Origin: Candidatus Thorarchaeota archaeon
Lineage (GTDB): Archaea; Asgardarchaeota; Thorarchaeia; Thorarchaeales; Thorarchaeaceae
DNA: 64,000 nucleotides
Assembly: GCA_038893995.1 (NCBI GenBank)
Contig: JAWAQK010000001.1
Location: forward strand, 43,776 to 107,775
Direction of reading: 5' to 3'
Under the pieces are notes generated by a model. That model searched no databases and was not told where the DNA came from. It saw only the letters and a list, made by a program, of their open reading frames with translations. Below, in pieces: positions 8,729 through 47,139 of this stretch (position 1 is the stretch's first letter; the number at the start of each line of letters is the position of its first letter). The position numbers and the translations under genes were made by a program.

Positions 8729-9676
8729 ATGGTGCCTCTATCACGGATATACAGAAAGGCAATGATCACTCTACTTGAACTGGGGGTCATACTCACACCC
8801 ACTGCGTTATGGTGGATCGTCATGGATGGACTTGGACTCCCAGTCATGTCGGTCTTCCTGGAACTTGCGCTTCCTATAGCCGGACTCGGACTTGTGTTCC
8901 TCATGCTCGGAGGCATCGAGGTCGTGATGAACATCCATCAACACAGTGTCGCTGTCCGGGGCATCAAGTCCGTCCTCAGCTCCGCCAATATCTCCGGCCA
9001 GTTTACCCCGGCAATGCAACCGGCATATCTCCTTGCGGACTCAATGGACAGAGAGGTGCTCGCAGCCATCAGGGAGATTGGCTCAGACATCCTCGACATA
9101 GAGGATCATCTGGCAAGTAGCGCAGTGCTCCCTGCCGGACAGGACACCTACCGTGTCCTCGCCAAGCTGCGAATGTTGGGGCTGATCATGATATCAGAGA
9201 AATGGGGGAAGGTGTTTCTGACTTCGGCAGGGATTGATGCACTGAATACGCCTGCAATCATGTACACGACGCGGATCCCCGATCAAGTCTGGAACTATGT
9301 GTTTAGCGAGAAGGTCCATCTGTGGAATCAAGAGTGGGGCGAAGTCGTGATCTCTGCTACGAGAGCACTTGAGGCTGCAATGAAGGAGAGGGTCAGGGTC
9401 AGTGTGAGCGCACGGCCTGAGCTGGAACAGGAGATAATGGAGATGGCTGCCGGCAAGCCGGTTGAGACCTGGAGCGCAGGCAATCTGCTTGGAGCCCTGC
9501 GTAAGATAGGCGTGGTGAGATCCAGTAGCCTTGAGGACGTGTTGGCTGGCGAGATCATAAAGACGAGGAATCTGGTTCACGACAAGGGAAGAGAGTACAC
9601 GTTCGGACCGGGAGATGCGGACCGCTGCGACACATGCCTGAGTATCCTGCTGAGGTCATGGTATGGTCCCCGGTGA
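8729..9676 (+). CDS. Hypothetical protein (two N-terminal TM helices plus a soluble helical domain).
   Basis: 315-aa ORF after a 650-bp non-coding gap. The hydrophobic N-terminus is LLELGVILTPTALWWIVMDG / LALPIAGLGLVFLMLGG. No recognisable catalytic motif. Confidence 0.4.
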   Translation: MVPLSRIYRKAMITLLELGVILTPTALWWIVMDGLGLPVMSVFLELALPIAGLGLVFLMLGGIEVVMNIHQHSVAVRGIKSVLSSANISGQFTPAMQPAYLLADSMDREVLAAIREIGSDILDIEDHLASSAVLPAGQDTYRVLAKLRMLGLIMISEKWGKVFLTSAGIDALNTPAIMYTTRIPDQVWNYVFSEKVHLWNQEWGEVVISATRALEAAMKERVRVSVSARPELEQEIMEMAAGKPVETWSAGNLLGALRKIGVVRSSSLEDVLAGEIIKTRNLVHDKGREYTFGPGDADRCDTCLSILLRSWYGPR

Positions 9677-9701
9677 TTAGTCCACCTGCCAGGACTTCCA
9701 C

Positions 9702-10556
9702 CTATGACTGCTCGTCCTCAACTACCGAAGCTATTCGAAGGGACCTTACAATCTCCTTGCACCGGGTTCTCAGTGTCACCTCGGTCACTCCGGCACTGAG
9801 CGCAATGGTCGCCTGGGGAATCCAGCAGTTGAGGTGTCTTCCTGCCAAGTAGATGGCCGCAGCCGCCATACCCCACGGATCCCTTCCAGCGACAAGTCCT
9901 CGCTTCTTTGACTCCTCGACTATGTCACACGCGTGCTTCACAACTTCGGTTCTAAGGTGCAGCTCTGCAGCCACACTCCTCACAGCCGCAGTCGGGTCAG
10001 GAGGAGGCGGTCTCAGGTGTAGCGAGCGGGCAACGATCCTGAATACCCTTTTGAGACGCTCTTCTGACACTCCAGCCATGCTTGCAACTCTGCCTAATTG
10101 TACAGGCTCTCCGGACATCCTACAGGCCGCATACACGGCAGCAGATACCAGTACGTCTCTGGATCGACCTCGAAGACAAACATGGCCAAACGCATCTCTC
10201 AGTATTCCCGATGCGATGACCCTGGTCTCATCGGGGATACCAAGCTTGAATGCGAGCGAGTGAAGACTGAACAGTGAATCACTCAGAAGACGTCTGCCCC
10301 TACGCTGGGATCTCACAGACAGTCTCCTCGTGATGTCAGTCCTGGGGCTTGTCACGCGACCAGGTCCGGAGTGTGTTGCAAGTGCAGTGTCTGCATTCGT
10401 CGACGTACCTGACGTCGTAGCACGAAGGGCATCCCGACCGGAGCCAGAAACGGACTTGACACTCGGGTCGTGACGATCTGAGGGAGAGTAATAGTCGTCA
10501 AGACGCGACTGCCAGTTGTGGTCTAGGTGGTCAGACTCACCGTCTCGCACTCTCAC
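9702..10556 (-). CDS. TFB/TFIIB-like protein with two cyclin repeats but no N-terminal zinc ribbon or B-reader.
   Basis: Two TFIIB-type cyclin repeats, RDVLVSAAVYAACRMSGEPVQLGRVASMAGVSEERLKRVFRIVARSL and RDPWGMAAAAIYLAGRHLNCWIPQATIALSAGVTEVTLRTRCKEIVRSL. The N-terminal 110 aa is low-complexity (S/T/R-rich) and has no CxxC pairs. Confidence 0.6.
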   Translation of the reverse strand: MRVRDGESDHLDHNWQSRLDDYYSPSDRHDPSVKSVSGSGRDALRATTSGTSTNADTALATHSGPGRVTSPRTDITRRLSVRSQRRGRRLLSDSLFSLHSLAFKLGIPDETRVIASGILRDAFGHVCLRGRSRDVLVSAAVYAACRMSGEPVQLGRVASMAGVSEERLKRVFRIVARSLHLRPPPPDPTAAVRSVAAELHLRTEVVKHACDIVEESKKRGLVAGRDPWGMAAAAIYLAGRHLNCWIPQATIALSAGVTEVTLRTRCKEIVRSLRIASVVEDEQS

Positions 10557-10825
10557 CCATAGCCCCTTTGCTAGTCAGTCCTACCGTGGCATCGACGTCT
10601 GATATAGGTAAGGCTCACCATGAATAGTGTTTGTCGTTTTTATGAGTTGTTGCGATATCCACAAGAGATCCTACCCGGATAAGACTGTCCAGACGGATAC
10701 TTCGGTCGACTTCGTCTCGCGCACCGTTTCTAATGCTCACTGGAGAGCTGCGGCAAATCATCCTTAGCTGCACAGGACAGCGTGGTATGAACAGCAGTCG
10801 GAGCCGGATTCGGACGCCATTGCCC

Positions 10826-12970
10826 TCATCCCAGCGAGTATCTGTATCTGTCAATGAACTCTCGTTTCTTGGAGGATCCCCACGAACTCAGTGATTGGCT
10901 GTAGCCAGTGATGCGCGATATGACCTCGACGCCCACATAACCACATCTCGGGCAGGGTATCCTACTGAGTTCATCAACCGAGTTGAACTTCGTGACTCGC
11001 CAATCGATACCGCCCTGGTAGGAGCACTTTGGACAGACTAGAATGTCTTTGGTGAAAGCCCAATATGCTGCCAGAGTTTCCCGAGCGATCTTGAGGTTGA
11101 GCCTCCACAGAGCATCAGGATCAGGATCTGCCTCACCCAGGAACACGTGTGTCAGTGCGCCTCCATCCATATAGGGATGGAACATGGCCTCTTTCTTGAC
11201 GCGTTCAGTCAGAGGCAGACCCGCACCGACGTAGAGGCAAGTGCTATTCGTGTAGTAGACATCGGGGGCCTCTCCCTTCAGGTATTTCCTGATTCCTGGG
11301 TATAGCCTGTAGTCCTTCATCGCTAGTCGTCCGGCCGCGGTCTCAGCCGGCGTTCGGGTCACACCGAAATGCAGACCAGTTTCCTCCTTGAACTCGTCAG
11401 CCCTGGCCTTCAGGTGTTTCAGCACCTTTATTCCAAAGCGTGTGCCTTCCCTCTCGTGAAGAGGATATCCAGTCACTATCTCAGCCATCTCGTTAAAGCC
11501 CACCGTACCAAGCAGATACTCTCTCCTCGTGACATCAATGAGTGGCTTTCCGTTGGGCTTGGGCTGTGTGTAGAATGGCACACTGCCGCTCTCAATCAGC
11601 TTCTGCATCAGTCGCTTCTTCTCAAGAATGACGCCCTTGCAGAGCTCAATGTACTCGTCAAGCTTGGCAAAGAATCTGGCCTCGTCAGCCCGGCCGAGCC
11701 ACGCCGCACGACCGAAGTTTGGAGTGACCATCTGCGATGCTCCGAATACCATATTTCCTGTGAGGAACTCTTCCATCTCTTCCTCGCTACTTGCGGTCCA
11801 AAGATGGGAACAACAGCTACTACAACCGGCCTCAATGCTCGATCTCCAGTTGAGGTAGTTCTCAAAATAGGGTGAACCAAACTTGGCAGCCAACTCTGAT
11901 ACAAGTCGCCAAGAACCTTCGTGTTCAGGAGTCATGAACTCCTCGCGCAGGACTATGTTCGGCTTGGGGAAATTGAAGCCCTTGCCTCTGGCATCTCCTG
12001 CAATCATGACCTCCATGAATGCATCGAAGAACTCACGTGCCTCCAGGTCAAAATCGCCATAGGTGAGATCAGTGACCTTGCCTCCCGGCAGGACAGCAGG
12101 TACATCGCGCATTATCTTTGGGATTCCCGGGGTCAGATCGATTGATGAGAAGATCACCTGGCCACCACGGGCAACATATTGCTGGGTGAGTGTGAATATC
12201 AGTTGCTGAGCGGCCTGTTTGATCTCCCTAAAGGTGTGGCCTCTCATGAAGGGCGCAAGGAAAGTGTTGTAGAAGAAGAATCCCTGTCCCCCTGCGAATG
12301 AGCTCTGGGCAGCAGCTAGCCATATGGCAGAGTGATTGACGGCGACGTTCAGATGCTGAGCCGGCCCAGCAGCACTCGAATGCATGCCTCCCAGTCCATC
12401 AGGTGCGATTCCCAGAAGGAGTACCTGGCGCAGGTCCCATGTCGCACAGTAATCACGTGTGGAGAAATACTCTCTGTCCTTGATGTAGATGTCACCCCTC
12501 AGGTGTGCATCGGCCAGCTTGGGGGGAATAGTCAGATAGCAGTGTTGCTCCATGACCTGGTCGTGGACAAGTTTTGCAATCGTCTCGGGGTTGCGCATGA
12601 GATTGGCATTCGACGTGAATAGCCCAGGACTGCTTATGAGTTGGTTCAGGTCATAGATGGGTATACCGACCCGTGTATACCTGATACGCTCTGCCTCCAG
12701 CCCCATTTCCGCCAAGACACTGTTGCACATCTCACGTATCAGGGGACCAGAGAGAAACTTGATTCCGGAGGCGGCAATCCGATCCATCACCTTCAGTGCA
12801 ACTGTTCGTGCAATGGTTTCACTCATGCCGGTCTCGCGCACTAGGCTGCCCACTATACGGCTGGAGTCGAATGGTTCCATTGTGCTGCTTGTAGTACGCA
12901 CCTGGGGGAGCTTCTTCTCCCTGGACTTGACGCTCTCCAAGTCAGCACCGGTTTCTGTGATCTCGGTCAT
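10826..12970 (-). CDS. nrdD: Anaerobic (class III) ribonucleoside-triphosphate reductase with an N-terminal ATP-cone.
   Basis: 714 aa. ATP-cone region (SRIVGSLVRETGMSETIARTVALKV). C-terminal Zn site (CPKCSY...CPRCGY) and glycyl-radical motif (SRITGYSQ). Confidence 0.85.
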   Translation of the reverse strand: MTEITETGADLESVKSREKKLPQVRTTSSTMEPFDSSRIVGSLVRETGMSETIARTVALKVMDRIAASGIKFLSGPLIREMCNSVLAEMGLEAERIRYTRVGIPIYDLNQLISSPGLFTSNANLMRNPETIAKLVHDQVMEQHCYLTIPPKLADAHLRGDIYIKDREYFSTRDYCATWDLRQVLLLGIAPDGLGGMHSSAAGPAQHLNVAVNHSAIWLAAAQSSFAGGQGFFFYNTFLAPFMRGHTFREIKQAAQQLIFTLTQQYVARGGQVIFSSIDLTPGIPKIMRDVPAVLPGGKVTDLTYGDFDLEAREFFDAFMEVMIAGDARGKGFNFPKPNIVLREEFMTPEHEGSWRLVSELAAKFGSPYFENYLNWRSSIEAGCSSCCSHLWTASSEEEMEEFLTGNMVFGASQMVTPNFGRAAWLGRADEARFFAKLDEYIELCKGVILEKKRLMQKLIESGSVPFYTQPKPNGKPLIDVTRREYLLGTVGFNEMAEIVTGYPLHEREGTRFGIKVLKHLKARADEFKEETGLHFGVTRTPAETAAGRLAMKDYRLYPGIRKYLKGEAPDVYYTNSTCLYVGAGLPLTERVKKEAMFHPYMDGGALTHVFLGEADPDPDALWRLNLKIARETLAAYWAFTKDILVCPKCSYQGGIDWRVTKFNSVDELSRIPCPRCGYVGVEVISRITGYSQSLSSWGSSKKREFIDRYRYSLG

Positions 12971-35821: not shown

Positions 35822-37879
35822 ATGGATGTCTTCGAGTTGAGGGACCGAGATGGTCTTGCCAGACTTGGCCGACTGATCACAAGACACGGGACTGTGACAA
35901 CACCTCTCCTGATGCCGGTGGTACATCCCGGGAAGTCGACCGTCACTGCACAGGAACTGCGAAGCGAGTTTGGATTCGAGATGGTGATAGCCAACTCGTT
36001 CATAATCCGGTCTCGGCCGGAATATAGGGACGTCGCGCTCGAGAGAGGAATACATGCCCTGCTAGACTTCAACGGGCCGGTGATGACTGACTCAGGAACG
36101 TTCCAGATGTACTATCATTCGCTGCCTCGTGAGACTATCGACCCCATCGAGATCGTCAGATTTCAACGGAGCATCGGGACGGACATTGGTACGATACTTG
36201 ACGTGTTCTCAAGACCCGACGCAGGAAGAGAGAAGATCGAGGAGGACGTCAGGACATCAGTTGAGAGGGCGAGGAGGTCGGTTGGGGAAAAGGGAGACAT
36301 GCTCCTGGCAGGAACAGTGCAGGGAGGGGCCTACACTGACCTGAGAGAGGCATGCGCACGAGAGCTCGCCTCAATGGACTTTGATCTACACCCAATCGGC
36401 GGGGCAGTACCACTCATGGAGAGTTACCGGTATTCAGACATTGTCAGGGTCGTCCTTGCCGCAAAGAGGAATCTCCCAGCTAACCGGCCCGTACATCTGT
36501 TTGGGTGTGGACACCCGATGTTCCTGGCTCTCGCAGTGGCCCTGGGATGCGATCTGTTTGACTCGGCGTCATATGCTAAGTTTGCAGAGGACGGAAGACT
36601 ACTCCTACCAAGTGGTACTGTGCATCTGGACGACCTGAATGAGATGCCCTGCGAATGCAAGATATGCTCAAGCACGACACCTGAGGAGATCAGACGACTG
36701 GAGAGGGACCAGCGCGAAGACATGATCACTCGACACAACCTCTACGTCATGGCCGCCGAGATGAGGAGAGTACGGCAGGCGGTCCGAGAAGAGAAGATAC
36801 TCGAGCTTGCAGCGCTCAGGGCGAGGTCGCATCCTCGGCTAATCGAGGCGCTGATGCAGCTGCTCAACCACGCAGACCAGATCGAGGCTGAGGACCCCGT
36901 GGGGAAGACTGCATCGGTGTTCTACACAGGACCTGAGACCGCCCTTCATCCCTCACTGTACCGCTTTCACAAGAGGGTACTCGAGAGGTATCCGTATCTC
37001 GAAACGGACACCTTGCTCCTAGTCCCAGACATGGGGTACGTTCCATTCTCAGAGTCCAATCCGACAATCGAAAGTCTGGCCGGCACTCACACCCCCGAGG
37101 AGCTCATCGTGGTGTATGTGACTCCCATTGGTGTTGTCCCGTGGGAGTACGGACAGGTCTATCCGGCCCAGCAGTGCGTCTTCGGGAGGATGCTAGATAC
37201 AGATACCCTTGATACGGTGGCCAGGAGAACAAGTCAGTTTGTTGATACTGTGACCTGCCGCCGTGTCGTGTGGGTTCAGAGAGAGCATGTAGTTGACTCG
37301 GTGCGTCAGAGGATGAAATGGTCTGTCGAGCCAGATACGATCAGTCCATCGGACCTGTCGAAAGATCTGGTACCGGAGGCAGAGGGTCGTGAGAAACTTG
37401 CCGTGGAGCGAACTCTGAAGGCCCTGTTTCGATACCAATGGGGGGTCGATATCACGCGGGCAATTCCCATAGAGCAGATGAGGTGCGAATTCTCGAGGCG
37501 CACAGGCAAGATGAGACATCTGTTCCACGGGGAAGAATTGCTCTTCACGATTGTCCCCACCACAGGTCTCATGACGCCAACTGTTCGAGGTGCGCAGGTG
37601 CTCCTCGATGCAGGCATCGGCGACGATTACCGAGTTGTAGTATCTGACGAGGCAGCACCCTTCATCCGACAGGGAAAGTCAGTGATTGCCAAGTTCGTCA
37701 TGAGGGCCGGTACTGACCTGAGGCCTGGCGAGGAGGTGCTGATCCTCGATCAGGACGGAAATCTGCTTGGAACCGGACCTGCACTGTTGAGTGGCCGAGA
37801 GATGTTGACGTTCAAGAGGGGAGTGGCTGTAAATACTAGGCACCAGCAGAGGCAGCAGCCTGCGATGAGTGACGCGTAA
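35822..37879 (+). CDS. tgtA: Archaeosine tRNA-guanine transglycosylase (ArcTGT) with C-terminal PUA-type domains.
   Basis: TIM-barrel TGT core (VMTDSGTFQMY, GGAVPLM, CxCxxC Zn site CECKICS). 685 aa, the long C-terminal extension is typical of archaeal TgtA. Confidence 0.85.
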   Translation: MDVFELRDRDGLARLGRLITRHGTVTTPLLMPVVHPGKSTVTAQELRSEFGFEMVIANSFIIRSRPEYRDVALERGIHALLDFNGPVMTDSGTFQMYYHSLPRETIDPIEIVRFQRSIGTDIGTILDVFSRPDAGREKIEEDVRTSVERARRSVGEKGDMLLAGTVQGGAYTDLREACARELASMDFDLHPIGGAVPLMESYRYSDIVRVVLAAKRNLPANRPVHLFGCGHPMFLALAVALGCDLFDSASYAKFAEDGRLLLPSGTVHLDDLNEMPCECKICSSTTPEEIRRLERDQREDMITRHNLYVMAAEMRRVRQAVREEKILELAALRARSHPRLIEALMQLLNHADQIEAEDPVGKTASVFYTGPETALHPSLYRFHKRVLERYPYLETDTLLLVPDMGYVPFSESNPTIESLAGTHTPEELIVVYVTPIGVVPWEYGQVYPAQQCVFGRMLDTDTLDTVARRTSQFVDTVTCRRVVWVQREHVVDSVRQRMKWSVEPDTISPSDLSKDLVPEAEGREKLAVERTLKALFRYQWGVDITRAIPIEQMRCEFSRRTGKMRHLFHGEELLFTIVPTTGLMTPTVRGAQVLLDAGIGDDYRVVVSDEAAPFIRQGKSVIAKFVMRAGTDLRPGEEVLILDQDGNLLGTGPALLSGREMLTFKRGVAVNTRHQQRQQPAMSDA

Positions 37880-38996
37880 GTGGGTGGCCCCGAACTCTCT
37901 TCAGGGCCTCAACACCGCCCGTAGGAAGCACCATCACGTTCGAGGGTGAAACAAACAAGTGAAGGGTGTCTCCGGCATTGACTGTACTATGAGGAGGCAA
38001 CAGGGCCTGAGCACTCACATCACCGACATTGAAGTAGACCTCAAGTGAGTTGCCAACAAAGATCGTTCGACTGACTGTGCCGATAATCTCGTTGTCCTCA
38101 GGACTCTGACGAGACATCGACATGGCCTCGGGTCGGATTGCACAGATCGCCGACTCGCCTATCTCGAATGGATAACCGGTGACTGTCGATCTCCCCCGGA
38201 CCTCCTGTCTGGCTGAGAGTTGAACAACAGTCCAGTCACCGATCGAAGATATGGAGCCTCTCAGTAGCGTGCATTTTCCTATGAAGTCGGCCACAAACAC
38301 AGTCTGCGGATTCAGGTATATCTGCCGAGGCGTGTCAAACTGCTGCACATATCCACGGTCCATCACAGCAACTCGGTCAGAGATGCTGAGCGCCTCGTGC
38401 TGATCGTGAGTCACGTAGACGGTGGTGATAGACAGTTCCTTCTGGATACGCACTATCTCCTCTCGCATGTCACTACGCAGCTTGGCATCGAGATTTGAGA
38501 GCGGTTCGTCGAGTAGAAGGACTGCGGGCTCTATCACAAGTGCGCGGGCCAGTGCGACCCTCTGTTGTTGACCACCAGATAGTTGGTGAATATGTCGATT
38601 CTCAAGACCCTCGAGCCGGACTAGGGCGAGCGTCTGGGAAACACGTCTGTGGATGGCACTGGCGGTATACTTCATTCCATTGATGCGCTTCAACTTGAGA
38701 CCATATGCTACGTTTTCGAACACAGACATGTGTGGCCAGAGGGCATAGTTCTGGAAGCACATGCCCGTGTTTCGTTTGTGAGGGGGTAGCTCAGTCACAT
38801 CACGGTCGTCAAAGTAGATCTTACCGGAATCAGGGCGATAGAATCCTGCGATAAGCCGAAGTAGCGTGGTCTTGCCACATCCAGATGGACCAAGCAAGGT
38901 CGATAGTTCGCCCTCCCTGAGGACGAGATTGACCTCATCAGTGGCGACCACGTTGCCGAATGTCTTTCGGAGATTCTCCAGACGTATCTCAACCAT
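37836..38996 (-). CDS. ABC transporter ATP-binding protein with a C-terminal TOBE domain (Fe3+/spermidine/thiamine importer type).
   Basis: Walker A GPSGCGKTT. Signature LSGGQQQRVALARA. Walker B LLLDEPLSNLD. 386 aa. Confidence 0.85.
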   Translation of the reverse strand: MVEIRLENLRKTFGNVVATDEVNLVLREGELSTLLGPSGCGKTTLLRLIAGFYRPDSGKIYFDDRDVTELPPHKRNTGMCFQNYALWPHMSVFENVAYGLKLKRINGMKYTASAIHRRVSQTLALVRLEGLENRHIHQLSGGQQQRVALARALVIEPAVLLLDEPLSNLDAKLRSDMREEIVRIQKELSITTVYVTHDQHEALSISDRVAVMDRGYVQQFDTPRQIYLNPQTVFVADFIGKCTLLRGSISSIGDWTVVQLSARQEVRGRSTVTGYPFEIGESAICAIRPEAMSMSRQSPEDNEIIGTVSRTIFVGNSLEVYFNVGDVSAQALLPPHSTVNAGDTLHLFVSPSNVMVLPTGGVEALKRVRGHPLTRHSSQAAASAGA

Positions 38997-39005
38997 AGTG
39001 ACACC

Positions 39006-40919
39006 TCATATACCCGTCATTGCAGATGTCCTAGTACCCAGTATCTTGGTGGTCACTGCGATTACTGCCATCTGCATGGACATCATGAGCGTTCCTAGGC
39101 ACGCCGCATTAAACGGACCACCATAACGTCCTGTGGCATACAGGATCTCTCTGGTCCAGAACGTCATTGGGGCAAACTCGTGTCCGAGACTGCCCAGAAT
39201 CAGGCTAGTACTTACTTCACTGACTGAGTACACGAACGACAGCAACGCACCTGCCAAGACATTGACCCCTATCAGGGGGAGTGTTATCCGAAGGAATGTC
39301 TGACTCTTGCTTACTCCGACACTCTGTGACGCTTCCTCGAGTGAGACAGGCGTAGAACGTAGACCCGCATATGCAGCCCGGACCGTGAATGGAAACTTCC
39401 TCACTGTGTAGGACCACACGAGCAGAAAGGCAGGACCGGGCCAGCCCTGTGCGGGAAAGAACGGGGTATTATAGAAGAGTGTGAAGTAGCCAGTTGCAAT
39501 GACGATCCCGGGCAGTGCGACTGGGGATGTGACAAGCAGATCAAGAATGGTCCGACCAGGAATGTCTTTTCGGACTATGATGTAGGCGGCCCCGGTGCCC
39601 AGTAATGATATCATTGCTGTTGCAATGAGACCATACAACAGAGTTAGCAGTATAGAGTTCCTGACGTCCGGATAGGCCCAAAGCACAGAATAGTTGTCTA
39701 GGGTCCAAGCATCGGGGAGCACGGCATTAGTGGACCAATAGCTCGTCAGAGACAGGACTATGACGCTCATCTGAGGGATCAACGCGAGAAACAGCAACGG
39801 GATGAGCACTGCGTAGAGAATGATGGTCGATCTACGAGAGAGCCTTCGGACTCGAGGATTCCACTGACCCCCCTTGGTGCCAGACTCGTAGGACCTCAAC
39901 GAGGCGTATCGTCGGATGGCTATAAAACCTGCAAGTGCAAAGGTGAGCAGGATGACACCGATGGCGGGTCCCACGGGGTTGATCGTGCCCGCCTGGGTCG
40001 CGATGCTGCTGAACACCTGAAACGACAGAGTCTTTTGCGCCTGTAGGTTCTCGTAGTACACTATCGGTCCGCCGAGGTCTTCCAGGCTGATGATAAAGGT
40101 GAGAATTGCACCAGCCTGAATGCCAGGCATGGCCAGCGGGAGGGTGACCGAACGAAATAGCTTGAAGCCAGTTGCCCCGAGATTCTCTGCCTGTTCCTCT
40201 AGTGAGGGGTCGATGCTCATGAAGGATGAATATGCATTGAGATAGACTAGAGCAAAGAGCGACAGCGACTGAACGAAGATTATGGCGGCGAGACCCTGCA
40301 GCTGTATCCTGGGGGGAGTCTCGATTGCGAGCCAGGGAAGGGTCGTCTGTAGCCAGGAAACAATGGCTCTTGCCGCGTTATTGAAGAAGCCATGTGTACC
40401 CATGAAGTACTTTACACCTATAGCACCTACGAAGGGAGTGGCCAGGATTGGGAATATCAAAACAGTGCGGAGTACTCTCTTGCCGGGGAAATCGTAACGA
40501 GCCATGACGAACGCGAGGAAAACACCAATGATGACAGCGAAGAATGTCACGAATGTGGCGACATATAGTGAGTTGAGTATGGCACCAAGGTCCCAGCCTC
40601 GAATGACAATCGTTTCCGGTCCTACCACGATCGTTTCCAGATTAATATAGAACACCCAGCCTGAGTTGGGATCATACTGAAAGGGCCAGATATTGGAGTT
40701 CTGGAAAAGAGACTGAAAATGTATCAACGATGGCAGTCCTGTACTCTGGTCAGTGAAAGAGAATCGGATGACATCAGCAAGCGGCAGCACGAGGAACAGA
40801 CCAAATGCAATGAGTACAGCTGCAAGCTGAACAGTAGACAACATGTCTAGTTCTGCCCGGAGCTTGACAAACATTCCACGAATTGCTGCAGCAGGGTTTC
40901 TTGAGCGCCACGCCACCAT
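39006..40919 (-). CDS. ABC transporter permease with fused double TMD (FbpB/ThiP-like).
   Basis: Two repeats of the permease EAA-like region (LEEQAENLGATGFKLFRSVTLPL and LEEASQSVGVSKSQTFLRITLPL) and about 12 TM helices. The start is uncertain: the longest ORF start is 41174, and internal Mets at 40970, 40919 and 40874 lie after the SBP stop at 41108. Confidence 0.7.
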   Translation of the reverse strand: MVAWRSRNPAAAIRGMFVKLRAELDMLSTVQLAAVLIAFGLFLVLPLADVIRFSFTDQSTGLPSLIHFQSLFQNSNIWPFQYDPNSGWVFYINLETIVVGPETIVIRGWDLGAILNSLYVATFVTFFAVIIGVFLAFVMARYDFPGKRVLRTVLIFPILATPFVGAIGVKYFMGTHGFFNNAARAIVSWLQTTLPWLAIETPPRIQLQGLAAIIFVQSLSLFALVYLNAYSSFMSIDPSLEEQAENLGATGFKLFRSVTLPLAMPGIQAGAILTFIISLEDLGGPIVYYENLQAQKTLSFQVFSSIATQAGTINPVGPAIGVILLTFALAGFIAIRRYASLRSYESGTKGGQWNPRVRRLSRRSTIILYAVLIPLLFLALIPQMSVIVLSLTSYWSTNAVLPDAWTLDNYSVLWAYPDVRNSILLTLLYGLIATAMISLLGTGAAYIIVRKDIPGRTILDLLVTSPVALPGIVIATGYFTLFYNTPFFPAQGWPGPAFLLVWSYTVRKFPFTVRAAYAGLRSTPVSLEEASQSVGVSKSQTFLRITLPLIGVNVLAGALLSFVYSVSEVSTSLILGSLGHEFAPMTFWTREILYATGRYGGPFNAACLGTLMMSMQMAVIAVTTKILGTRTSAMTGI

Positions 40920-41107
40920 CTTTGCCCAGTCCCGTGGCCTTGAAACCAGCGATGAGTATGCACGCAGCATCCTCCGCTTGACAAGGGAGGGGAGTGCGCC
41001 CACGGCCTCTCTGACCCTGCCAGGGATGCTGTCTGGGACCAGTTCCGTTTCCTCAGGCTGGTGTCCCGTCCTTTGGTCTGTCGTTCCCGACACACTCCTG
41101 ATAGAGG

Positions 41108-42616
41108 TCACTGAAACAAGGCTTGAACGAGACTCATCACATACTGATACTGGTTCTTTGCGGCAGTCGTCCACCGGCTTGCAACTATTGAGGCATAGGA
41201 TGCATCGTATATCATGTCATGGTTTATTGACCGGGCATACTCCACGGTGAACTTCTCGTCCTTCAAGGTCTTCGGGTCTTGAATCGTGACCGGGGATCCC
41301 ATCAGGCCAGCGTAGTAGTCGACATCGATCAGCGAGATACGACCTTCGAAGTAGGCACTCAATATTGCGGTCCAGCAATTCACGAGCTCAGTGTGAGCAT
41401 GAGTGAACACAGACTGGAAGTACCTAATGAACGCGGAATTGGTCTCGACTGACAGGGTGTCATTGAATTCGATCCCATGTGTCGCTACAGTCCTGTTATA
41501 GGCTGCATAGAGGTCCTGCGCTTCGCTGGCCTCGGGCTCGAGGAATGCCTCCCTGAGAATGGGCATTCTCCGGATGCTCTCGTCAAGCCACAGGACTTGG
41601 CCACGAGGCGACAGTACAAAGTCGATGAAGCCTTCTGCCAGTTCCATCTTTGAGGTCGTAGCGGCTATTGCTATGGGGTCTGCATTGACAATGGTCTGAC
41701 CCTCAGGGACTATGTACTCACAATCGGGATTCCTGTACTGCGTCTGGTAACCATAGAAGTCTATTGACATCGCTATGCCTACCTGTCCAGTCTCGGCAGC
41801 ACTCTGAGTTTCGACCGAGCCTCCGTAGATGTTTGCGCTACCCGCCATCCTCGCCAATGTGATCCATCCAGCATCCCAACCAAGGGCCTGAGTGATGATC
41901 TCGTAGATGCGTGTGTTCGAGGTCGTGTCTGGAGCATTACCCATTGCTATGGTTGCCTGTGAAGGTAGGAGCTTCCCGTAAGTCACATTGGCGAGATCTG
42001 TCCATGTATGGGGAGTGGGAAGACCATACTCGTCGAGAAACGCATGATTCACAGTAAAGCCGAAAGAAGATATTGCAGCGCCAATCCACACGGTCTCGCC
42101 TGCCGTATTGTTTCGCTTCATTACTGAACCGGCGATTGTATTGTTTACGCGGGCTGCGACTTCAAGCATGAGAGGGCTTGTCAGGGGGGCAAGCCTTCCA
42201 TCACGTGCCAATTGATCGAAGAGAGTCGGACCGCCGCCCCAGCATACATCAACCTGTCCGGTGTCGATCAGATCATCCCAGAATTCCTGAGAGGGGGTCC
42301 TCCAGATAATATCTACAAGCCCGTGAGATCGTGCAAACTCTGTCTGCAAGAACGCTGGTTCAAACACATTCTGAATTGAAGTGTCATGCCGCGTCAGGAT
42401 AGTCAGAGTCGTGGTTTGAGTAGTGTCTTCAGCCAGAGGTCCACTGAGTATCACGAGGCCGACTGCAGAAGACACGACAACCAGTGCCGCAATGGCTGCA
42501 ACAAGCTTCGTCTTTGAGGCTGTTTCAAACTCAGACACCTGTACACACACCTCTCTAGGCCATGGGATGATGGAGTCATGTACCTCTGCTCGTAGTCGGA
42601 ATAATAAACCTTTCAC
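41108..42616 (-). CDS. ABC transporter substrate-binding protein (family-1 SBP, iron(III)/thiamine type), membrane-anchored.
   Basis: N-terminal signal/anchor helix LVAAIAALVVVSSAVGLVILSG, then a periplasmic-binding-protein-like sequence. 502 aa. Heads the operon with the permease and ATPase. Confidence 0.7.
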   Translation of the reverse strand: MKGLLFRLRAEVHDSIIPWPREVCVQVSEFETASKTKLVAAIAALVVVSSAVGLVILSGPLAEDTTQTTTLTILTRHDTSIQNVFEPAFLQTEFARSHGLVDIIWRTPSQEFWDDLIDTGQVDVCWGGGPTLFDQLARDGRLAPLTSPLMLEVAARVNNTIAGSVMKRNNTAGETVWIGAAISSFGFTVNHAFLDEYGLPTPHTWTDLANVTYGKLLPSQATIAMGNAPDTTSNTRIYEIITQALGWDAGWITLARMAGSANIYGGSVETQSAAETGQVGIAMSIDFYGYQTQYRNPDCEYIVPEGQTIVNADPIAIAATTSKMELAEGFIDFVLSPRGQVLWLDESIRRMPILREAFLEPEASEAQDLYAAYNRTVATHGIEFNDTLSVETNSAFIRYFQSVFTHAHTELVNCWTAILSAYFEGRISLIDVDYYAGLMGSPVTIQDPKTLKDEKFTVEYARSINHDMIYDASYASIVASRWTTAAKNQYQYVMSLVQALFQ

Positions 42617-42674
42617 AATCGAGCTATAAAGGTTAAATCCAAGCGTTTGATTCGGAAACTACCCAACGAGCCCG

Positions 42675-43751
42675 GTGCTCGAGGAGAGAGACTCCATGAA
42701 TCAGACGAGAGTGAAGAGCATCCTCGCAATGACCATGATATTGATCATGGTCGCTTCCATATTCTATAGCTACTCGATACCGGCCACAGCAAGTGACGTC
42801 ACACCCGGCTACCGTGGGAAGATACTCATCGACTATTCACACGGACAGTTCAAGGAAACGGCTCAGTACCTTGACAATCTTCTTGCGGCTAACCTTACTG
42901 AGATGGGCTTTGAGGTGGTCTTCCTGCGGGGAGGAATTAACAGCACAGTGTTGTCAGACGCAACAGGGCTGATAGTCAGTGGTATATACGAACCGACAAA
43001 CGCCATCTTGCCCGCTGAGGTCGAGGCGATAGCAGCATGGTTCAACGCGGGACACAAGTTCCTGTGGGTCGGTTATGACTCAGACTATCCCACCACAACA
43101 ACAGGCCAGTGGATCCTGGACAACATGACTGCGATACTTGAGGCAGTGGGCTCTCACGTCTACGGAGAACCAACTGCGGTACAGGACCCAGTACTGAACG
43201 CCGGAGCAGCATACAGACCAATCGCCAATGGCACAAGTAACGATCCGGTCGTCGCATCATGTGTGGCAAACGTGGGTCGAGTCCTAGTTCACAGCCCGAC
43301 CATCCTCTATGGCAGCAACAGTCCGACTCCAGGTGAGAACGTCAGTCCAGTGGCGCTTGAGGAGGTACAGATTGAGAATGTATACCCAATCCTGTATCAC
43401 AGCAAGAACGCCACTATAGTCGACAGCGATACCCTGTATCCCTATGCCCACCAGGATGGCCAGAGAGGCGCATTTGTGTCAATGACCCTGGAGCTGAAGG
43501 CAGGTGCAGCCAAGAACGGCGCCATCGTTGTCTCCGGTGCCAACCCCATCGGCTACTACTGGCCAATGACCGCTGACTTCTATTATGGACAACTGAGGCT
43601 GACAGGTTTCAACTTGGTACTCCAGACAATTGACTTTGGCATTACCGAGGCGCTGAAGGTTCAGTTTGACTGGACAACAATCATCGTAATTGGCGGGGTA
43701 GTCGCACTCGTTGTGATCGTTGCAGCTGTAGCGATCAAGCTCAAGAAGTAG
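42675..43751 (+). CDS. Secreted, C-terminally membrane-anchored surface protein with many N-glycosylation sequons (ThuA/DUF4350-like fold suspected).
   Basis: N-terminal signal helix ILAMTMILIMVASIF. C-terminal anchor TIIVIGGVVALVVIVAAVAIKLKK. At least 9 N-x-S/T sequons (NQT, NLT, NST, NMT, NGT, NAT and others). The ILIDYSHGQ region is paralogous to the N-terminus of the next gene. Confidence 0.5.
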   Translation: MLEERDSMNQTRVKSILAMTMILIMVASIFYSYSIPATASDVTPGYRGKILIDYSHGQFKETAQYLDNLLAANLTEMGFEVVFLRGGINSTVLSDATGLIVSGIYEPTNAILPAEVEAIAAWFNAGHKFLWVGYDSDYPTTTTGQWILDNMTAILEAVGSHVYGEPTAVQDPVLNAGAAYRPIANGTSNDPVVASCVANVGRVLVHSPTILYGSNSPTPGENVSPVALEEVQIENVYPILYHSKNATIVDSDTLYPYAHQDGQRGAFVSMTLELKAGAAKNGAIVVSGANPIGYYWPMTADFYYGQLRLTGFNLVLQTIDFGITEALKVQFDWTTIIVIGGVVALVVIVAAVAIKLKK

Positions 43752-43820
43752 AAGAGAATCGCCCGGCAACGGCCGGGCCTCATTTTTCTTTCTTGGTCCC
43801 ATAGGAGAACGAGAATACTT

Positions 43821-46241
43821 ATGAGAGGCGGCGACAGTGTCAGGGCGACTATGAAGACAGGACGACTGGGCACGACCATCCCTGTGTTGTTGATCATTCT
43901 GTTCATTATGTTTCCATGGATTGTAGTTACGGATTCTGTGCACACGACCGAACCCGATCGTGAGCCAACATCAGACGCTATCTCAGCGAGAGTACTGATC
44001 GACGAGTCTCACTGTGCGAACGGAAGTAGTCTGTGGACTCCCGGCAACCTATCTCTCTTTGGATGGATACTTCAGCAGAACGGCCATGTAGTGACTACAA
44101 ATCTTGCCACGAGCCTGGATTCTGGGATCCTGCAGGACTACGATGTTGTCGTCCTCTTCTATCCTGCAGTCAACCTGACCGCAGGCGAATTTGATGCTAT
44201 CCGAGCGTTCGTTGAGTCGGGTAGGGGACTAGTCCTGGTTGGTACCGACAATGAGAATTGGTGGAAGCTCAGGCCAGATTATCTCAACACAATCTCCCGA
44301 GGATATGGTATAGAGTTCAACCAGGACCGTGTGACTGCCGATGTGACAGATCTTGCTGTGCACCCCATCAACCATCAGGTCTCGGTGCTTCACACGAGAG
44401 GGATCCAACTTGATGGGTGTACTCTCACTCTAAGCGGAGCGGCAGCGTATATTGCAGCAGTCCCTACGGGTCCAGTTGCTGCAGTAACAGAGGCCGGTGC
44501 GGGTAAGATCGTTGCAGTGGGTACGCCCGCACCATTCTACATGTACCGCATGCTCGACCCATCAGCCAGCAGAGCACATTTCCAGTTCGCTCTAAACATA
44601 ATTGATTGGCTGGCGAGCAATTCACCCAGGACCGTCAACGAGCCCGAATATGCCATCATTAGAGTCAAGTCAGGACCGACTCTGAGTGCTGAGGACCTGG
44701 AAAGATACAAGCTGTACGTAGGACTGTATCACGACCACACCACTCATAGTGACGGCGCAAACTCGGCTGCACGCATGCTTGAAGCAGGGCTCGAAAAGGG
44801 ACTCGACTTCATGATACTGACGGACCATTCGCACTTGCAGCCAAACACCATATCCGGGGTGTATGGAGCCATGGAGGCGAGGAGCATCGCCGAGAAGTAC
44901 GGACTCGACTGTCTTCAAGTCATTGGAGCTGAACTGTCGTCCGTAAAACACACAGCGGGATTCCCACTGAATGAGAATATCTGGACAAACAACCAGTCGG
45001 AGGCAGTCATTCGGATTCACGAACAGGGCGGAATCGCTATACTCTGCCATCCGACAATGGAATACTCCTACGGCGAGGTCTTCTCGCGAATGAACGAACT
45101 CAACTATGACGCATTTGAGGTCGACAACAGCGGATACATTTTCGGCTCGGGCGAGGATGCTCTGATCTGGCCATTCATGGGTGCCTGTGACAGTCACTCT
45201 GCGTCCCATGTAGGTGACGTGCTGAACGCCCTTTTCGTCGAGAACCCCAGCGGACAGGAGGGACAACTGGCAGATGAGGACATCAAGAACGCAGTCCTCA
45301 CCAGACAACTGGTCGTGCTGGATCAGCTCAACAAGATCATACTCGGCGACAAGACATGGGTCGACAGACTCGTGGAGATGTGGGACAATGCCAAGAATGA
45401 CATCACACAGACGGAGAATCTTCTGACCCAGATCGAGTCAACAGGACAGAAAGTTACCATGTCCAGATACTACCTCGACTCAGCAAGGACCTCGCTCGAA
45501 CACATGAGCATCGGACGTGCAGGACGTCTACTTGGAAATGCGACATCTGAACTTGTGTTGGGATTGGACATTGGAATTGAAACGATCGAGATTGGCGAGC
45601 CTTGGTCCAGCATACCAATAGTGATCAGGTTGGCCAACAACCATTCAGCTCCAGTCGTTCTAAATACAACCGTCTATCCGCTGGGTGAGGTGGTGATTGA
45701 CCCTATCAACCAGATCATCAATGCCTCTGCCAAGTCTGTGACAACTGAGACAAGGACCATGCAAACCGGAAACTATGGCTATCTGAATTTCTGGCTCAAT
45801 GTCATGAGCCTGTCTGATGAATATACTCTCATTCCTATCTTCATCTCAAGTCGGGGTCTTATCGATCATGTGACACACACAATAACACCTGTAGGTGACA
45901 GCTTTCAGGTCGAGTTTCAATTCTGGATAGGGAGGCAGAACACCAAGACAGTCATCGATGCGTCTCTATTCTACGACACGGGATCGGGCTGGACGATGGC
46001 CAAAATGGAAGAGTCCTGGAACTACTTCTTTGCCCGAGTTGGTCAACTGCAGGCAGGCATGAAGATTCGTTATCGTGTCGTCGTGGTCACTGAGAGTGGT
46101 GTATTCACCCTCCGTGAGAGGTTGGCAGAGATACCTGGCACAAGTCCAGACCTGGGCATCATAGGGCTAGTCGTTGCCGTGGGAGCGCTTGGGCTGGTCA
46201 CTGTGCTTGGCGTCTGGCGCATGAGGATCCGTCGAAACTGA
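43821..46241 (+). CDS. Surface-anchored protein with an N-terminal domain paralogous to the previous gene, plus a PHP-family phosphoesterase domain.
   Basis: Signal helix LGTTIPVLLIILFIMF. VLIDESHCANGS...VVLVGTDNEN resembles the upstream paralog. PHP motifs are LYHDHTTHSDG and IAILCHP. C-terminal TM anchor GIIGLVVAVGALGLVTVLGVW followed by a basic tail. 806 aa. Confidence 0.6.
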   Translation: MRGGDSVRATMKTGRLGTTIPVLLIILFIMFPWIVVTDSVHTTEPDREPTSDAISARVLIDESHCANGSSLWTPGNLSLFGWILQQNGHVVTTNLATSLDSGILQDYDVVVLFYPAVNLTAGEFDAIRAFVESGRGLVLVGTDNENWWKLRPDYLNTISRGYGIEFNQDRVTADVTDLAVHPINHQVSVLHTRGIQLDGCTLTLSGAAAYIAAVPTGPVAAVTEAGAGKIVAVGTPAPFYMYRMLDPSASRAHFQFALNIIDWLASNSPRTVNEPEYAIIRVKSGPTLSAEDLERYKLYVGLYHDHTTHSDGANSAARMLEAGLEKGLDFMILTDHSHLQPNTISGVYGAMEARSIAEKYGLDCLQVIGAELSSVKHTAGFPLNENIWTNNQSEAVIRIHEQGGIAILCHPTMEYSYGEVFSRMNELNYDAFEVDNSGYIFGSGEDALIWPFMGACDSHSASHVGDVLNALFVENPSGQEGQLADEDIKNAVLTRQLVVLDQLNKIILGDKTWVDRLVEMWDNAKNDITQTENLLTQIESTGQKVTMSRYYLDSARTSLEHMSIGRAGRLLGNATSELVLGLDIGIETIEIGEPWSSIPIVIRLANNHSAPVVLNTTVYPLGEVVIDPINQIINASAKSVTTETRTMQTGNYGYLNFWLNVMSLSDEYTLIPIFISSRGLIDHVTHTITPVGDSFQVEFQFWIGRQNTKTVIDASLFYDTGSGWTMAKMEESWNYFFARVGQLQAGMKIRYRVVVVTESGVFTLRERLAEIPGTSPDLGIIGLVVAVGALGLVTVLGVWRMRIRRN

Positions 46242-46566: not shown

Positions 46567-47139
46567 ATGCACGACCTCGAACGGGACGTAATAACAGCCT
46601 TCGGTCATGCAGTTGTTGAGTTCGAGGCCGCCCTGTATCAGAAGTTCATCATGATGTCTAGCGGTCATTCGTTGATAACCGTGGAGGAGTTCAGGAAGAT
46701 CCTGCAGGAGATGTACGCCAAGGGCTACATCAGTCCGTTAGATCTTCTGGGGAAGAAGGCATGGAAGAAGCTCGTGATCGAGGACAGGATCGATGACGCA
46801 CTGGTGCCACGAAGAATGATGATGAGTGGCGAGACACCCCCAGAGAGGATGGTCAAGACAAAGGGTCGTGTCGTCACTGAGTCCAGATGGGTTGCAGATC
46901 AGATAATGGAGGCCCTATCACGTAGCAGGTTCACAAGTAAGTCGCCTGAGAAGCGCATGGTCGAACTGCAGAAACATCTCTTAGAGATGAGGAAGGCACT
47001 CACGGTATCACAGAATGAGTTCATGAGCTATGTCGACAGGCACTTCCCCGATGTCAAGGAAGATCTGGCCAACCTGTTGAGGTCAAGAGGGGACCAGATG
47101 CTACTCCTTGGCATTAGGGTCCTGGAGGCTGTCGCATGA
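46567..47139 (+). CDS. Hypothetical protein.
   Basis: 190 aa, helical, charged, no recognised motif. Preceded by an AT-rich TATA-like element and a GGAG-type RBS. Confidence 0.4.
   Translation: MHDLERDVITAFGHAVVEFEAALYQKFIMMSSGHSLITVEEFRKILQEMYAKGYISPLDLLGKKAWKKLVIEDRIDDALVPRRMMMSGETPPERMVKTKGRVVTESRWVADQIMEALSRSRFTSKSPEKRMVELQKHLLEMRKALTVSQNEFMSYVDRHFPDVKEDLANLLRSRGDQMLLLGIRVLEAVA

Follow-up and report, generated by a model that had tools for sequence, protein, structure and literature searches.

A locus of five genes was analysed in a 64-kb stretch of DNA (hereafter the window, meaning the whole stretch) from a Candidatus Thorarchaeota metagenome-assembled genome; the G+C content of the window is about 54%. 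The ATPase, permease and substrate-binding protein (SBP) of an ATP-binding cassette (ABC) importer are encoded in this order on the minus strand, and two divergent genes on the plus strand encode surface-anchored proteins, here termed P4 and P5, both carrying a GIFT-like domain at the N-terminus and the second also carrying a PHP metallohydrolase barrel. All five open reading frames (ORFs) reported in an earlier description of this DNA (the sequence-only reading) were recovered at the same positions, and the locus comprises the following features:

37836..38996, minus strand: ABC ATPase with a C-terminal TOBE_2 domain, 386 amino acids (aa) (Pfam ABC_tran and TOBE_2)
39006..41174, minus strand: fused ABC permease with two transmembrane domains (TMDs), ORF of 722 aa (two BPD_transp_1 stretches, about 12 hydrophobic segments)
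41108..42538 (ORF to 42616), minus strand: membrane-anchored SBP of the COG1840/AfuA class, with an N-terminal transmembrane (TM) segment and a Thr-rich linker (SBP_bac_6)
42539..42695, no strand: divergent intergenic region of 157 nt between the importer operon and P4-P5 (read from the sequence)
42675..43751, plus strand: P4, a surface-anchored protein of 358 aa with a GIFT-like domain only (AlphaFold2 (AF2), Foldseek, hhalign)
43821..46241, plus strand: P5, a surface-anchored GIFT-PHP protein of 806 aa (Pfam, AF2)
43983..44624, plus strand: GIFT/DUF4350 domain of P5, aa ~55-268 (Pfam DUF4350, Foldseek)
44706..45350, plus strand: PHP metallohydrolase barrel of P5, aa ~296-510 (alignments, profile against PDB)
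45351..46130, plus strand: stalk of P5, consisting of a helical bundle (aa 511-580) and two beta-sandwiches (aa 582-770) (AF2, Foldseek)
46158..46229, plus strand: C-terminal TM anchor of P5, followed by the basic tail RMRIRRN (hydropathy; AF2 helix 781-805)

Alignment with homologues placed the start of the SBP at the GTG at 42538 (MSEFE...), where its homologues begin, and the likely starts of P4 and P5 at the ATG codons at 42696 and 43851, respectively. P5 was 100% identical to QXQ81_01090, a deposited hypothetical protein whose start is M11, at position 43851. The divergent intergenic region contains an AT-rich, TATA-like stretch, ctataaaggttaaat, around 42624-42640 (read from the sequence), and putatively serves as a shared promoter region. 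The homologues of the permease are 672-685 aa long, so that its ORF in the window is approximately 40-50 codons longer than they are, and the longest ORFs of the permease (39006-41174) and the SBP (41108-42616) overlap by 67 nt. The annotated start of the permease, which gives an N-terminal extension of about 110 aa, is probably too far upstream, with the true start downstream of 41174.

The assignment of a PHP domain to the second plus-strand product, as made by the sequence-only reading, was corroborated by its fold, its profile matches and a nine-ligand metal site. The AF2 model of P5 (pLDDT 87.7, pTM 0.81) contained the distorted (beta/alpha)7 barrel by which PHP domains are recognised, and Foldseek matched the model to the PDB entries 3e38 (E 2.3e-13) and 2anu (E 2.5e-10, TMt 0.71). 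Consistently, the family profile of the PHP domain matched TM0559 (2anu; E 2.5e-17) and BVU_3505 (3e38; E 1.3e-16) when searched against the PDB, with further matches to the PHP phosphoesterase 9etk, RNase AM (7ug9; E 1e-13) and the pAp phosphatase Cv1693 (2yb1), RNase AM and a pAp phosphatase being the nearest characterised enzymes. Against the Pfam model PF02811, the PHP region of P5 scored 24.7 bits (cut-off 26.4), and some of its homologues scored above the cut-off (34.8 bits for P0138, and others with precomputed PF02811 hits). The residues H304, H306, D311, H336, E371, H377, H410, D457 and H459 were invariant across 25 close and nine distant homologues, the latter being 21-26% identical, and the corresponding metal-ligand motifs (HxH...D, H, E, H, H and DxH) aligned to those of TM0559; the metal site of P5 is thus intact, which suggests catalytic competence. 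Phosphoester chemistry is the likely activity of this domain. The best NCBIfam model was the CehA/McbA metallohydrolase domain NF038032; its cut-off of 80 bits was reached neither by full-length P5 (33.7 bits) nor by the PHP region (37.1 bits), which leaves P5 outside the CehA/McbA family. The stalk that follows the barrel was matched by Foldseek to transglutaminase beta-barrels, Caf1M and FN3. Among Hodarchaeales relatives with the GIFT-PHP architecture, some have lost PHP ligands: the HxH motif is replaced in P0136, and in P0147, P0148, P0151 and P0161 the SDG motif is gone and the DH motif reads DY. These ligand-deficient proteins may be inactive or re-purposed paralogues.

Hydropathy analysis revealed, in P4 and P5 alike, a hydrophobic helix at the N-terminus with K/R ahead of it and a TM segment at the C-terminus with a basic tail behind it (KLKK in P4), in agreement with the signal helix and anchor proposed for both proteins from the sequence alone. 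According to the positive-inside rule applied at both ends, the bulk of P4 and P5 is predicted to lie outside the cell, including the PHP domain of P5, for which no cytoplasmic topology was found. The location had been called unusual for a PHP domain, a description that was overstated: a Sec-secreted PHP phosphodiesterase is already known as a purified and characterised enzyme (PMC5460133), and N-terminal hydrophobic leaders occur in many of the closest PHP-only relatives. In homologues from Heimdallarchaeota, the C-terminal end matched the curated model of the surface-sorting signal Heimdall-CTERM (30.5 and 25 bits; cut-off 24). The tails of P4 and P5 in the window matched no curated CTERM model (PGF-CTERM, Heimdall-CTERM or Loki-CTERM) at or above its cut-off, and the two proteins are thus predicted, as far as sorting models show, to be plain TM-anchored. 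As to the N-glycosylation sequons, P4 contained seven against 2.3 expected (P = 0.006), with a family ratio of 2.7x and at least 93% conservation of N73, N89, N150 and N185. For P5 the count was eight where 5.7 were expected, a difference not significant by itself (P = 0.2), with a family ratio of 1.5x and 100% conservation of N76, whereas five cytoplasmic neighbour proteins contained zero or one each. The earlier term sequon-rich is therefore appropriate for P4 but weak for P5 on its own, and both proteins are putatively N-glycosylated.

The N-terminal domain of P5 was recognised by the DUF4350 model (PF14258; 31.1 bits against a cut-off of 30.4, residues 83-260), and Foldseek matched it to the GIFT domain of IFT52 (5fms; E 1.8e-8, TM-score 0.68). 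P4 matched no Pfam and no NCBIfam model, and its 74 homologues were nearly all from Thorarchaeota. The AF2 model of P4 (pLDDT 89.3) displayed the class I glutamine-amidotransferase/flavodoxin-like fold, its best solved match in Foldseek being the N-terminal GIFT domain of IFT52 (E 4e-6), followed by GATase1 folds and a ThuA-like structure. Pairwise BLASTP between P4 and P5 was nearly uninformative (E 0.038), so that profile-profile comparison was needed; hhalign of the P4 and P5 N-terminal family alignments gave a probability of 96% and an E value of 3e-9 over 132 columns. These results indicate that the common domain put forward for the two plus-strand products is real, with a homology that is remote or ancient. 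The proteins can thus be called paralogous, as they had been, at the level of this domain but not beyond it.

P4 is accordingly a candidate member of the DUF4350/GIFT-like GATase1 group by hhalign and Foldseek, a placement by superfamily-level homology only that comes without a Pfam hit. Scores for named GIFT families stayed below their cut-offs: the IFT52 GIFT model (PF23355) gave 24.1 bits against 27.2, a likeness in fold only, and the GldG/ABC_transp_aux model (PF09822) gave 15.3 bits against 34.7, the adjoining transporter being an SBP-dependent BPD_transp_1 importer. With the GIFT domains of GldG, IFT52 and OST48/Wbp1, the fold is the same and the likeness is at superfamily level only. 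The shared domain thus matched only the functionally uncharacterised DUF4350/GIFT group, and the well-characterised family that might have accounted for it was not encountered. OST48 and Wbp1 have the same layout as P4, namely a signal peptide, a GIFT domain and a C-terminal TM segment with a short basic tail. Homology of P4 to OST48/Wbp1, considered on account of this topology and fold class, was rejected as no OST48/Wbp1 chain occurred among the top 50 fold hits. Family alignments revealed invariant polar residues in P4 (H56, D67, E115, S136, D137, S160, H161, E165, D171, R181, H206 and H259), which sit in motifs such as DYSHGQ, YDSDY and GSHVYGE, and invariant D61, E62 and H64 in the GIFT domain of P5. 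A putative active or ligand site in P4 would lie in a fold that is usually viewed as non-catalytic in this setting.

For the importer, the ATPase (ABC_tran E 1.9e-38, TOBE_2 E 1e-7), the BPD_transp_1 TMDs of the permease and the SBP (SBP_bac_6 E 2e-14) all scored above their Pfam cut-offs and are encoded together, which identifies a type I SBP-dependent importer and bears out the earlier assignment of a double-TMD permease and a TOBE ATPase. Curated models pointed most often to the putative 2-aminoethylphosphonate transporter PhnS2T2U2 (TIGR03261/03262/03265), all three subunits missing the equivalog cut-offs. The best NCBIfam models for the ATPase were PhnT2 (356.3 bits, cut-off 457.7) and then PotA (347 bits, cut-off 482); PhnU2, the only curated transporter model covering both TMDs of the permease, matched residues 197-700 with 140.5 bits (cut-off 593.25); and the top curated match of the SBP was to the putative 2-aminoethylphosphonate system, with 42.6 bits (cut-off 392.75). 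The equivalog cut-offs of ferric and thiamine systems were likewise missed (ferric ATPase model 324.6 against 496, ThiP 24.4 against 788, ThiQ 168.9 against 245). The label iron(III)/thiamine-type given to this importer therefore stands as a broad class but not specifically, every curated transporter family being far below its cut-off. By profile against the PDB, the SBP matched an iron(III) SBP (8x1a; E 1.3e-7) and the pyridoxal-5-phosphate binding protein P5PA (6wce; E 2.3e-7), and AfuA was a weak match. A homologue search with the SBP profile returned generic names only ('ABC transporter substrate-binding protein', 'ABC-type Fe3+ transport system'), which do not point to a substrate. The nearest solved SBPs bind Fe3+ or phosphorylated organic compounds.

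Conservation of the gene arrangement was assessed in 35 species-representative Thorarchaeota loci, each scanned with one hidden Markov model (HMM) per component; these loci came from a search with the P5 alignment, which recovers full-length loci of Thorarchaeota only. P4 adjoined P5 in 19 of the 35, and the SBP, permease and ATPase were all present in 14 of the 15 P4-P5 loci with enough flanking sequence to be judged, one locus (L011) keeping the module in a rearranged order. An exhaustive protein search additionally recovered GIFT-PHP homologues at 21-26% identity in Hodarchaeales, Heimdallarchaeota and Methanofastidiosia, and five of their loci were examined, from Hodarchaeales (L007), putative Hodarchaeales (L008), an Asgard-like contig (L009), Heimdallarchaeota B3 (L010) and Methanofastidiosia (L053). 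An SBP orthologue lay beside the GIFT-PHP gene in all five (HMM E 1e-120 to 1e-126 for L007-L010), as did a P4-family protein (E 8e-31 to 5e-96), which in one locus had three tandem P4 domains. The TOBE ATPase was found in four of the five and not within the flank of L008, and a long BPD_transp_1 permease occurred in L007-L010 only, none being seen on the 6.2-kb contig of L053. In L053 the gene order was SBP, GIFT protein, ATPase and GIFT-PHP, with the last two genes 1 nt apart.

Close Thorarchaeota genomes share HflX, ArcTGT, the ABC genes, P4, P5, sometimes the phospholipase C (PLC) gene described below, a protein of about 205 aa and polyprenyl synthase. The adjacency of the ABC genes could accordingly be regarded as mere lineage synteny, an explanation that was rejected because the distant lineages keep the linkage among unrelated flanking genes, with gene orders and strands that vary. 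Survival of the importer linkage through strong divergence and rearrangement indicates that the importer and the GIFT surface proteins form a conserved module and a functional unit. The link between the PHP surface protein and an importer, first noted from this one locus, is therefore upheld across Thorarchaeota, Hodarchaeales, Heimdallarchaeota and Methanofastidiosia despite the reshuffling.

In addition to P4 and P5, a gene for a third surface protein of about 630 aa, PLC-GIFT, was an adjacent member of the cluster in 17 of the 35 loci scanned from Thorarchaeota, as it was in Heimdallarchaeota B3. PLC-GIFT genes were located at the following positions:

12681-14624 of L002: PLC-GIFT gene
12451-14376 of L004: PLC-GIFT gene
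12489-14369 of L006: PLC-GIFT gene
8193-9866 of L003, minus strand: PLC-GIFT gene
7809-9734 of L010, minus strand: PLC-GIFT gene

Its layout comprises a signal peptide, a Zn_dep_PLPC domain (Pfam E 2e-12), a GIFT domain, a beta domain, a Ser/Thr linker and a C-terminal TM segment. The GIFT domain was approximately 25% identical to P4 (tblastn E 2e-7), and the Heimdallarchaeota orthologue was 35% identical over 500 aa. The predicted signal peptide stops directly ahead of the motif WGLxxH. A WGxxxH motif with the W1-H6 spacing of P1 nuclease raised the candidate of an S1/P1 nuclease, which was rejected because the Pfam and PDB profile matches were to phospholipase C only, those in the PDB being bacterial PLCs. 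Some sister loci, e.g., L001, also lack a PLC-GIFT gene.

The five genes of the window are best explained, with a probability of roughly 55%, as an extracellular scavenging module in which external organophosphate esters are cleaved and the product is captured and imported. P4 (GIFT-like domain only) and P5 (GIFT domain, trinuclear-metal PHP hydrolase and stalk) would be type-I-like surface proteins held on C-terminal TM anchors. P5 would hydrolyse an external organophosphate ester, as would PLC-GIFT, the third tethered protein, in most sister genomes; the product would be captured by the membrane-anchored SBP of the AfuA/FbpA/PhnS class and taken up by the divergently encoded importer with its fused permease and TOBE ATPase. 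Through their GIFT-like domains, the tethered proteins probably associate with one another or are held at the transporter. The GATase1/flavodoxin-like fold is an oligomerisation domain in GH42 beta-galactosidases, and a like role has been proposed for archaeal DUF4350 proteins (PMC5898192). As a guess, the leading substrate candidates are phosphodiesters or the phospho-head groups of lipids, because of the presence of the PLC and the PhnS2-like scores, and nucleotides and phosphorylated cofactors or sugars are kept as alternatives because of the relatives RNase AM, pAp phosphatase, P5PA and AfuA. An extracellular scavenging role, which had been suggested from the window alone, is thus well supported by the conserved importer linkage and the predicted outside location, whereas its phosphoester chemistry stays at the level of a likely assignment. 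A further elaboration, in which the GIFT domains of P4, P5 and PLC-GIFT form a hetero-oligomeric ecto-enzyme complex docked on the dedicated importer as a hitherto undescribed archaeal surface 'metabolon' for acquiring organophosphates, is doubtful. If true, it would provide the first biochemical role, in assembly or substrate hand-off, for the GIFT/DUF4350 fold, which eukaryotes reuse in IFT52 and OST48.

Several observations weigh against the scavenging module. The PHP domain belongs to the amidohydrolase superfamily and its top NCBIfam model, CehA/McbA, takes its name from carbamate esterases, and P5 may therefore cleave a bond other than a phosphoester. As all curated transporter models scored far below their cut-offs, the cargo could be Fe3+ or unrelated to phosphate. 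Signal-peptide cleavage and topology are predictions from hydropathy and charge heuristics only. The invariant polar residues of P4 may reflect a separate function of this protein in binding or catalysis, which the scavenging module leaves unexplained. The window itself contained no PLC-GIFT gene or remnant by tblastn. Finally, at least seven Thorarchaeota loci with full flanks carried P5 paralogues described as 'solo', since genes for P4, PLC or ABC components were all missing within 10 kb (L020, L022, L023, L029, L030, L038 and L043, each near 10001-12400), which implies that P5-type enzymes can work without an importer. In the genome SRP214966_co4_397, a solo copy (L023) coexists with a copy in the module (L039).

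Alternatively, P4 and P5 might be integral auxiliary subunits of the ABC transporter, comparable to GldG in GldAFG, with the GIFT domain docking on the permease or SBP to gate the importer or deliver cargo, and with the PHP domain processing cargo at the transporter mouth instead of acting as a free-standing scavenging enzyme. Such an arrangement, which we regard as rather unlikely, would fit the GIFT/DUF4350 fold, as this is also the fold of GldG-type ABC_transp_aux proteins and gave weak PF09822 hits that were stronger in homologues; it would also fit the GldG-like layout of P4, in which N- and C-terminal hydrophobic helices enclose an external domain, and the tight co-occurrence with one importer subfamily across archaeal phyla, including the 1-nt spacing of ATPase and GIFT-PHP genes in Methanofastidiosia. 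However, the PF09822 score was less than half of its cut-off and no GldG model match was returned, the partner of GldG is an ABC-2 exporter and not an SBP-dependent importer, and the solo P5 paralogues occur with no transporter nearby.

The two other explanations dispute either the chemistry or the link to transport. It is quite improbable that the PHP domain is not a phosphoesterase and cleaves another ester or an amide, as CehA and McbA do, so that the module would scavenge a non-phosphorus nutrient or chelated Fe3+. CehA/McbA was indeed the best NCBIfam model for all 15 PHP-region sequences (best E 7e-29 among members), McbA has been reported to be periplasmic, and the JGI name for the SBP is that of an 'ABC-type Fe3+ transport system' component. 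Nevertheless, P5 reached only 34-37 bits against the CehA/McbA cut-off of 80, P5 keeps all nine positions of the trinuclear ligand set that is characteristic of PHP phosphoesterases, the next-best PHP matches are nucleotide phosphoesterases, and the co-occurring third enzyme has a zinc phospholipase-C domain, from a phosphodiesterase family. It is very unlikely that P4 and P5 are envelope or secretion surface proteins resembling the arCOG01314 DUF4350 proteins, with an importer adjacency that is metabolically meaningless. They do share with those proteins the signal peptide, the extracellular DUF4350/GldG-like domain and the single C-terminal TM segment (PMC5898192), Ig-like stalk domains are present, and housekeeping synteny (HflX, ArcTGT and polyprenyl synthase) is conserved around the Thorarchaeota locus as well. 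By contrast, the MoxR ATPase and vWA partners that define the arCOG01314 neighbourhood were found in none of the loci examined, the importer linkage outlives the complete loss of surrounding synteny in four other lineages, and the hydrolase active sites are intact, which favours a function in catalysis.

Archaeal gene clusters that pair a surface hydrolase with an ABC importer are classical, as in the maltodextrin cluster of Thermococcus and Pyrococcus, in which a membrane-anchored amylopullulanase is encoded beside malEFGK. The scavenging module resembles that cluster in having a hydrolase on a C-terminal TM anchor encoded next to an SBP-dependent importer for its products, and differs from it in having metallo-phosphoesterase-type domains (PHP and PLC) in place of glycoside hydrolases, a GIFT-like domain on each tethered protein, and an SBP of the AfuA/FbpA/PhnS class in place of a sugar binder. 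The importer itself shares with PhnS2T2U2, FbpABC/AfuABC and ThiBPQ a cluster-D SBP, two TMDs in one polypeptide and an ATPase with a regulatory C-terminal domain, whereas its SBP is about 150 aa longer and TM-anchored, and its scores are far under the equivalog cut-offs.

Among PHP proteins, TM0559 and BVU_3505 are the closest solved barrels to P5 by profile and fold, with metal-ligand motifs that align one to one; they are structural-genomics proteins of one or two domains and 255-343 aa, 14-20% identical to P5, and have neither a GIFT domain nor a membrane anchor. The precedent for extracytoplasmic action is Sb-PDE of Sphingobium sp. TCM1, a secreted PHP-domain phosphodiesterase with a Sec signal peptide that acts on phosphodiesters outside the cytoplasm (PMC5460133). 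Likened to P5 by its description, Sb-PDE is a soluble homodimer of 441 aa that lacks the GIFT domain, the stalk and the TM anchor, and no linked importer has been described for it. The arCOG01314/DUF4350 proteins combine a signal peptide with an extracellular domain of flavodoxin fold, resembling GldG/DUF4350, and one C-terminal TM segment; their genes neighbour those for a MoxR-type AAA+ ATPase and for vWA proteins, and a secretion or membrane-remodelling complex was predicted (Makarova et al. 2015, PMC5898192). The layout is alike in P4 and P5, but their partners are an ABC importer and hydrolase domains, and P4 matches no Pfam model.

Since the pairing of a surface hydrolase with an ABC importer and secreted PHP enzymes are already known, the module represents no new principle. 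What appears to be new is that a single importer subfamily is coupled, in Asgard lineages and in Methanofastidiosia, to ectoproteins of the GIFT-only, GIFT-PHP and PLC-GIFT types. No description of a GIFT/PHP/PLC-importer module was found in the open-access literature searched, and the non-transporter members examined were annotated as hypothetical or with bare domain names, e.g., 'PHP domain-containing protein'. Asgard archaea are mostly uncultured, and their surface biochemistry and nutrient acquisition are known almost wholly from predictions. The module therefore offers a concrete and testable unit, consisting of two or three tethered ecto-proteins and a specific importer. The identity of its substrate would reveal the route by which phosphorus or phosphorylated metabolites are acquired by these archaea of sediments, and could also give a first functional handle on the GIFT/DUF4350 fold.

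Some further features were observed in and around the related loci. Very long orthologous permeases were encoded in L007 (15771-19925, 1384 aa), L008 (4075-9066, 1663 aa) and L010 (18973-21768, 931 aa), compared with 722 aa in the window, and the Heimdallarchaeota SBP was 813 aa long with FN3-like additions. In L007, a Metallophos (calcineurin-like phosphoesterase) gene for a protein of 249 aa (9060-9809, plus strand) lies immediately upstream of the GIFT-PHP gene; its product has no leader and is probably cytoplasmic. Roadblock/LC7 genes were detected a few kb from the GIFT-PHP gene in L003 (17006-18071, minus strand) and L010 (2344-2778, minus strand); in L003, a gene for a small Ras/Arf-like GTPase is adjacent. 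Such genes belong to the usual 'eukaryotic signature' repertoire of Asgard archaea and probably have no connection with the module. Downstream of P5 in the window, an ORF of 190 aa (46567-47139, plus strand) had no Pfam hit and no obvious TM segment, and an unannotated ORF of about 200-208 aa occupies a like position, after P5 or the PLC gene, in L001, L002, L004 and L006. The 190-aa ORF could encode a regulator.

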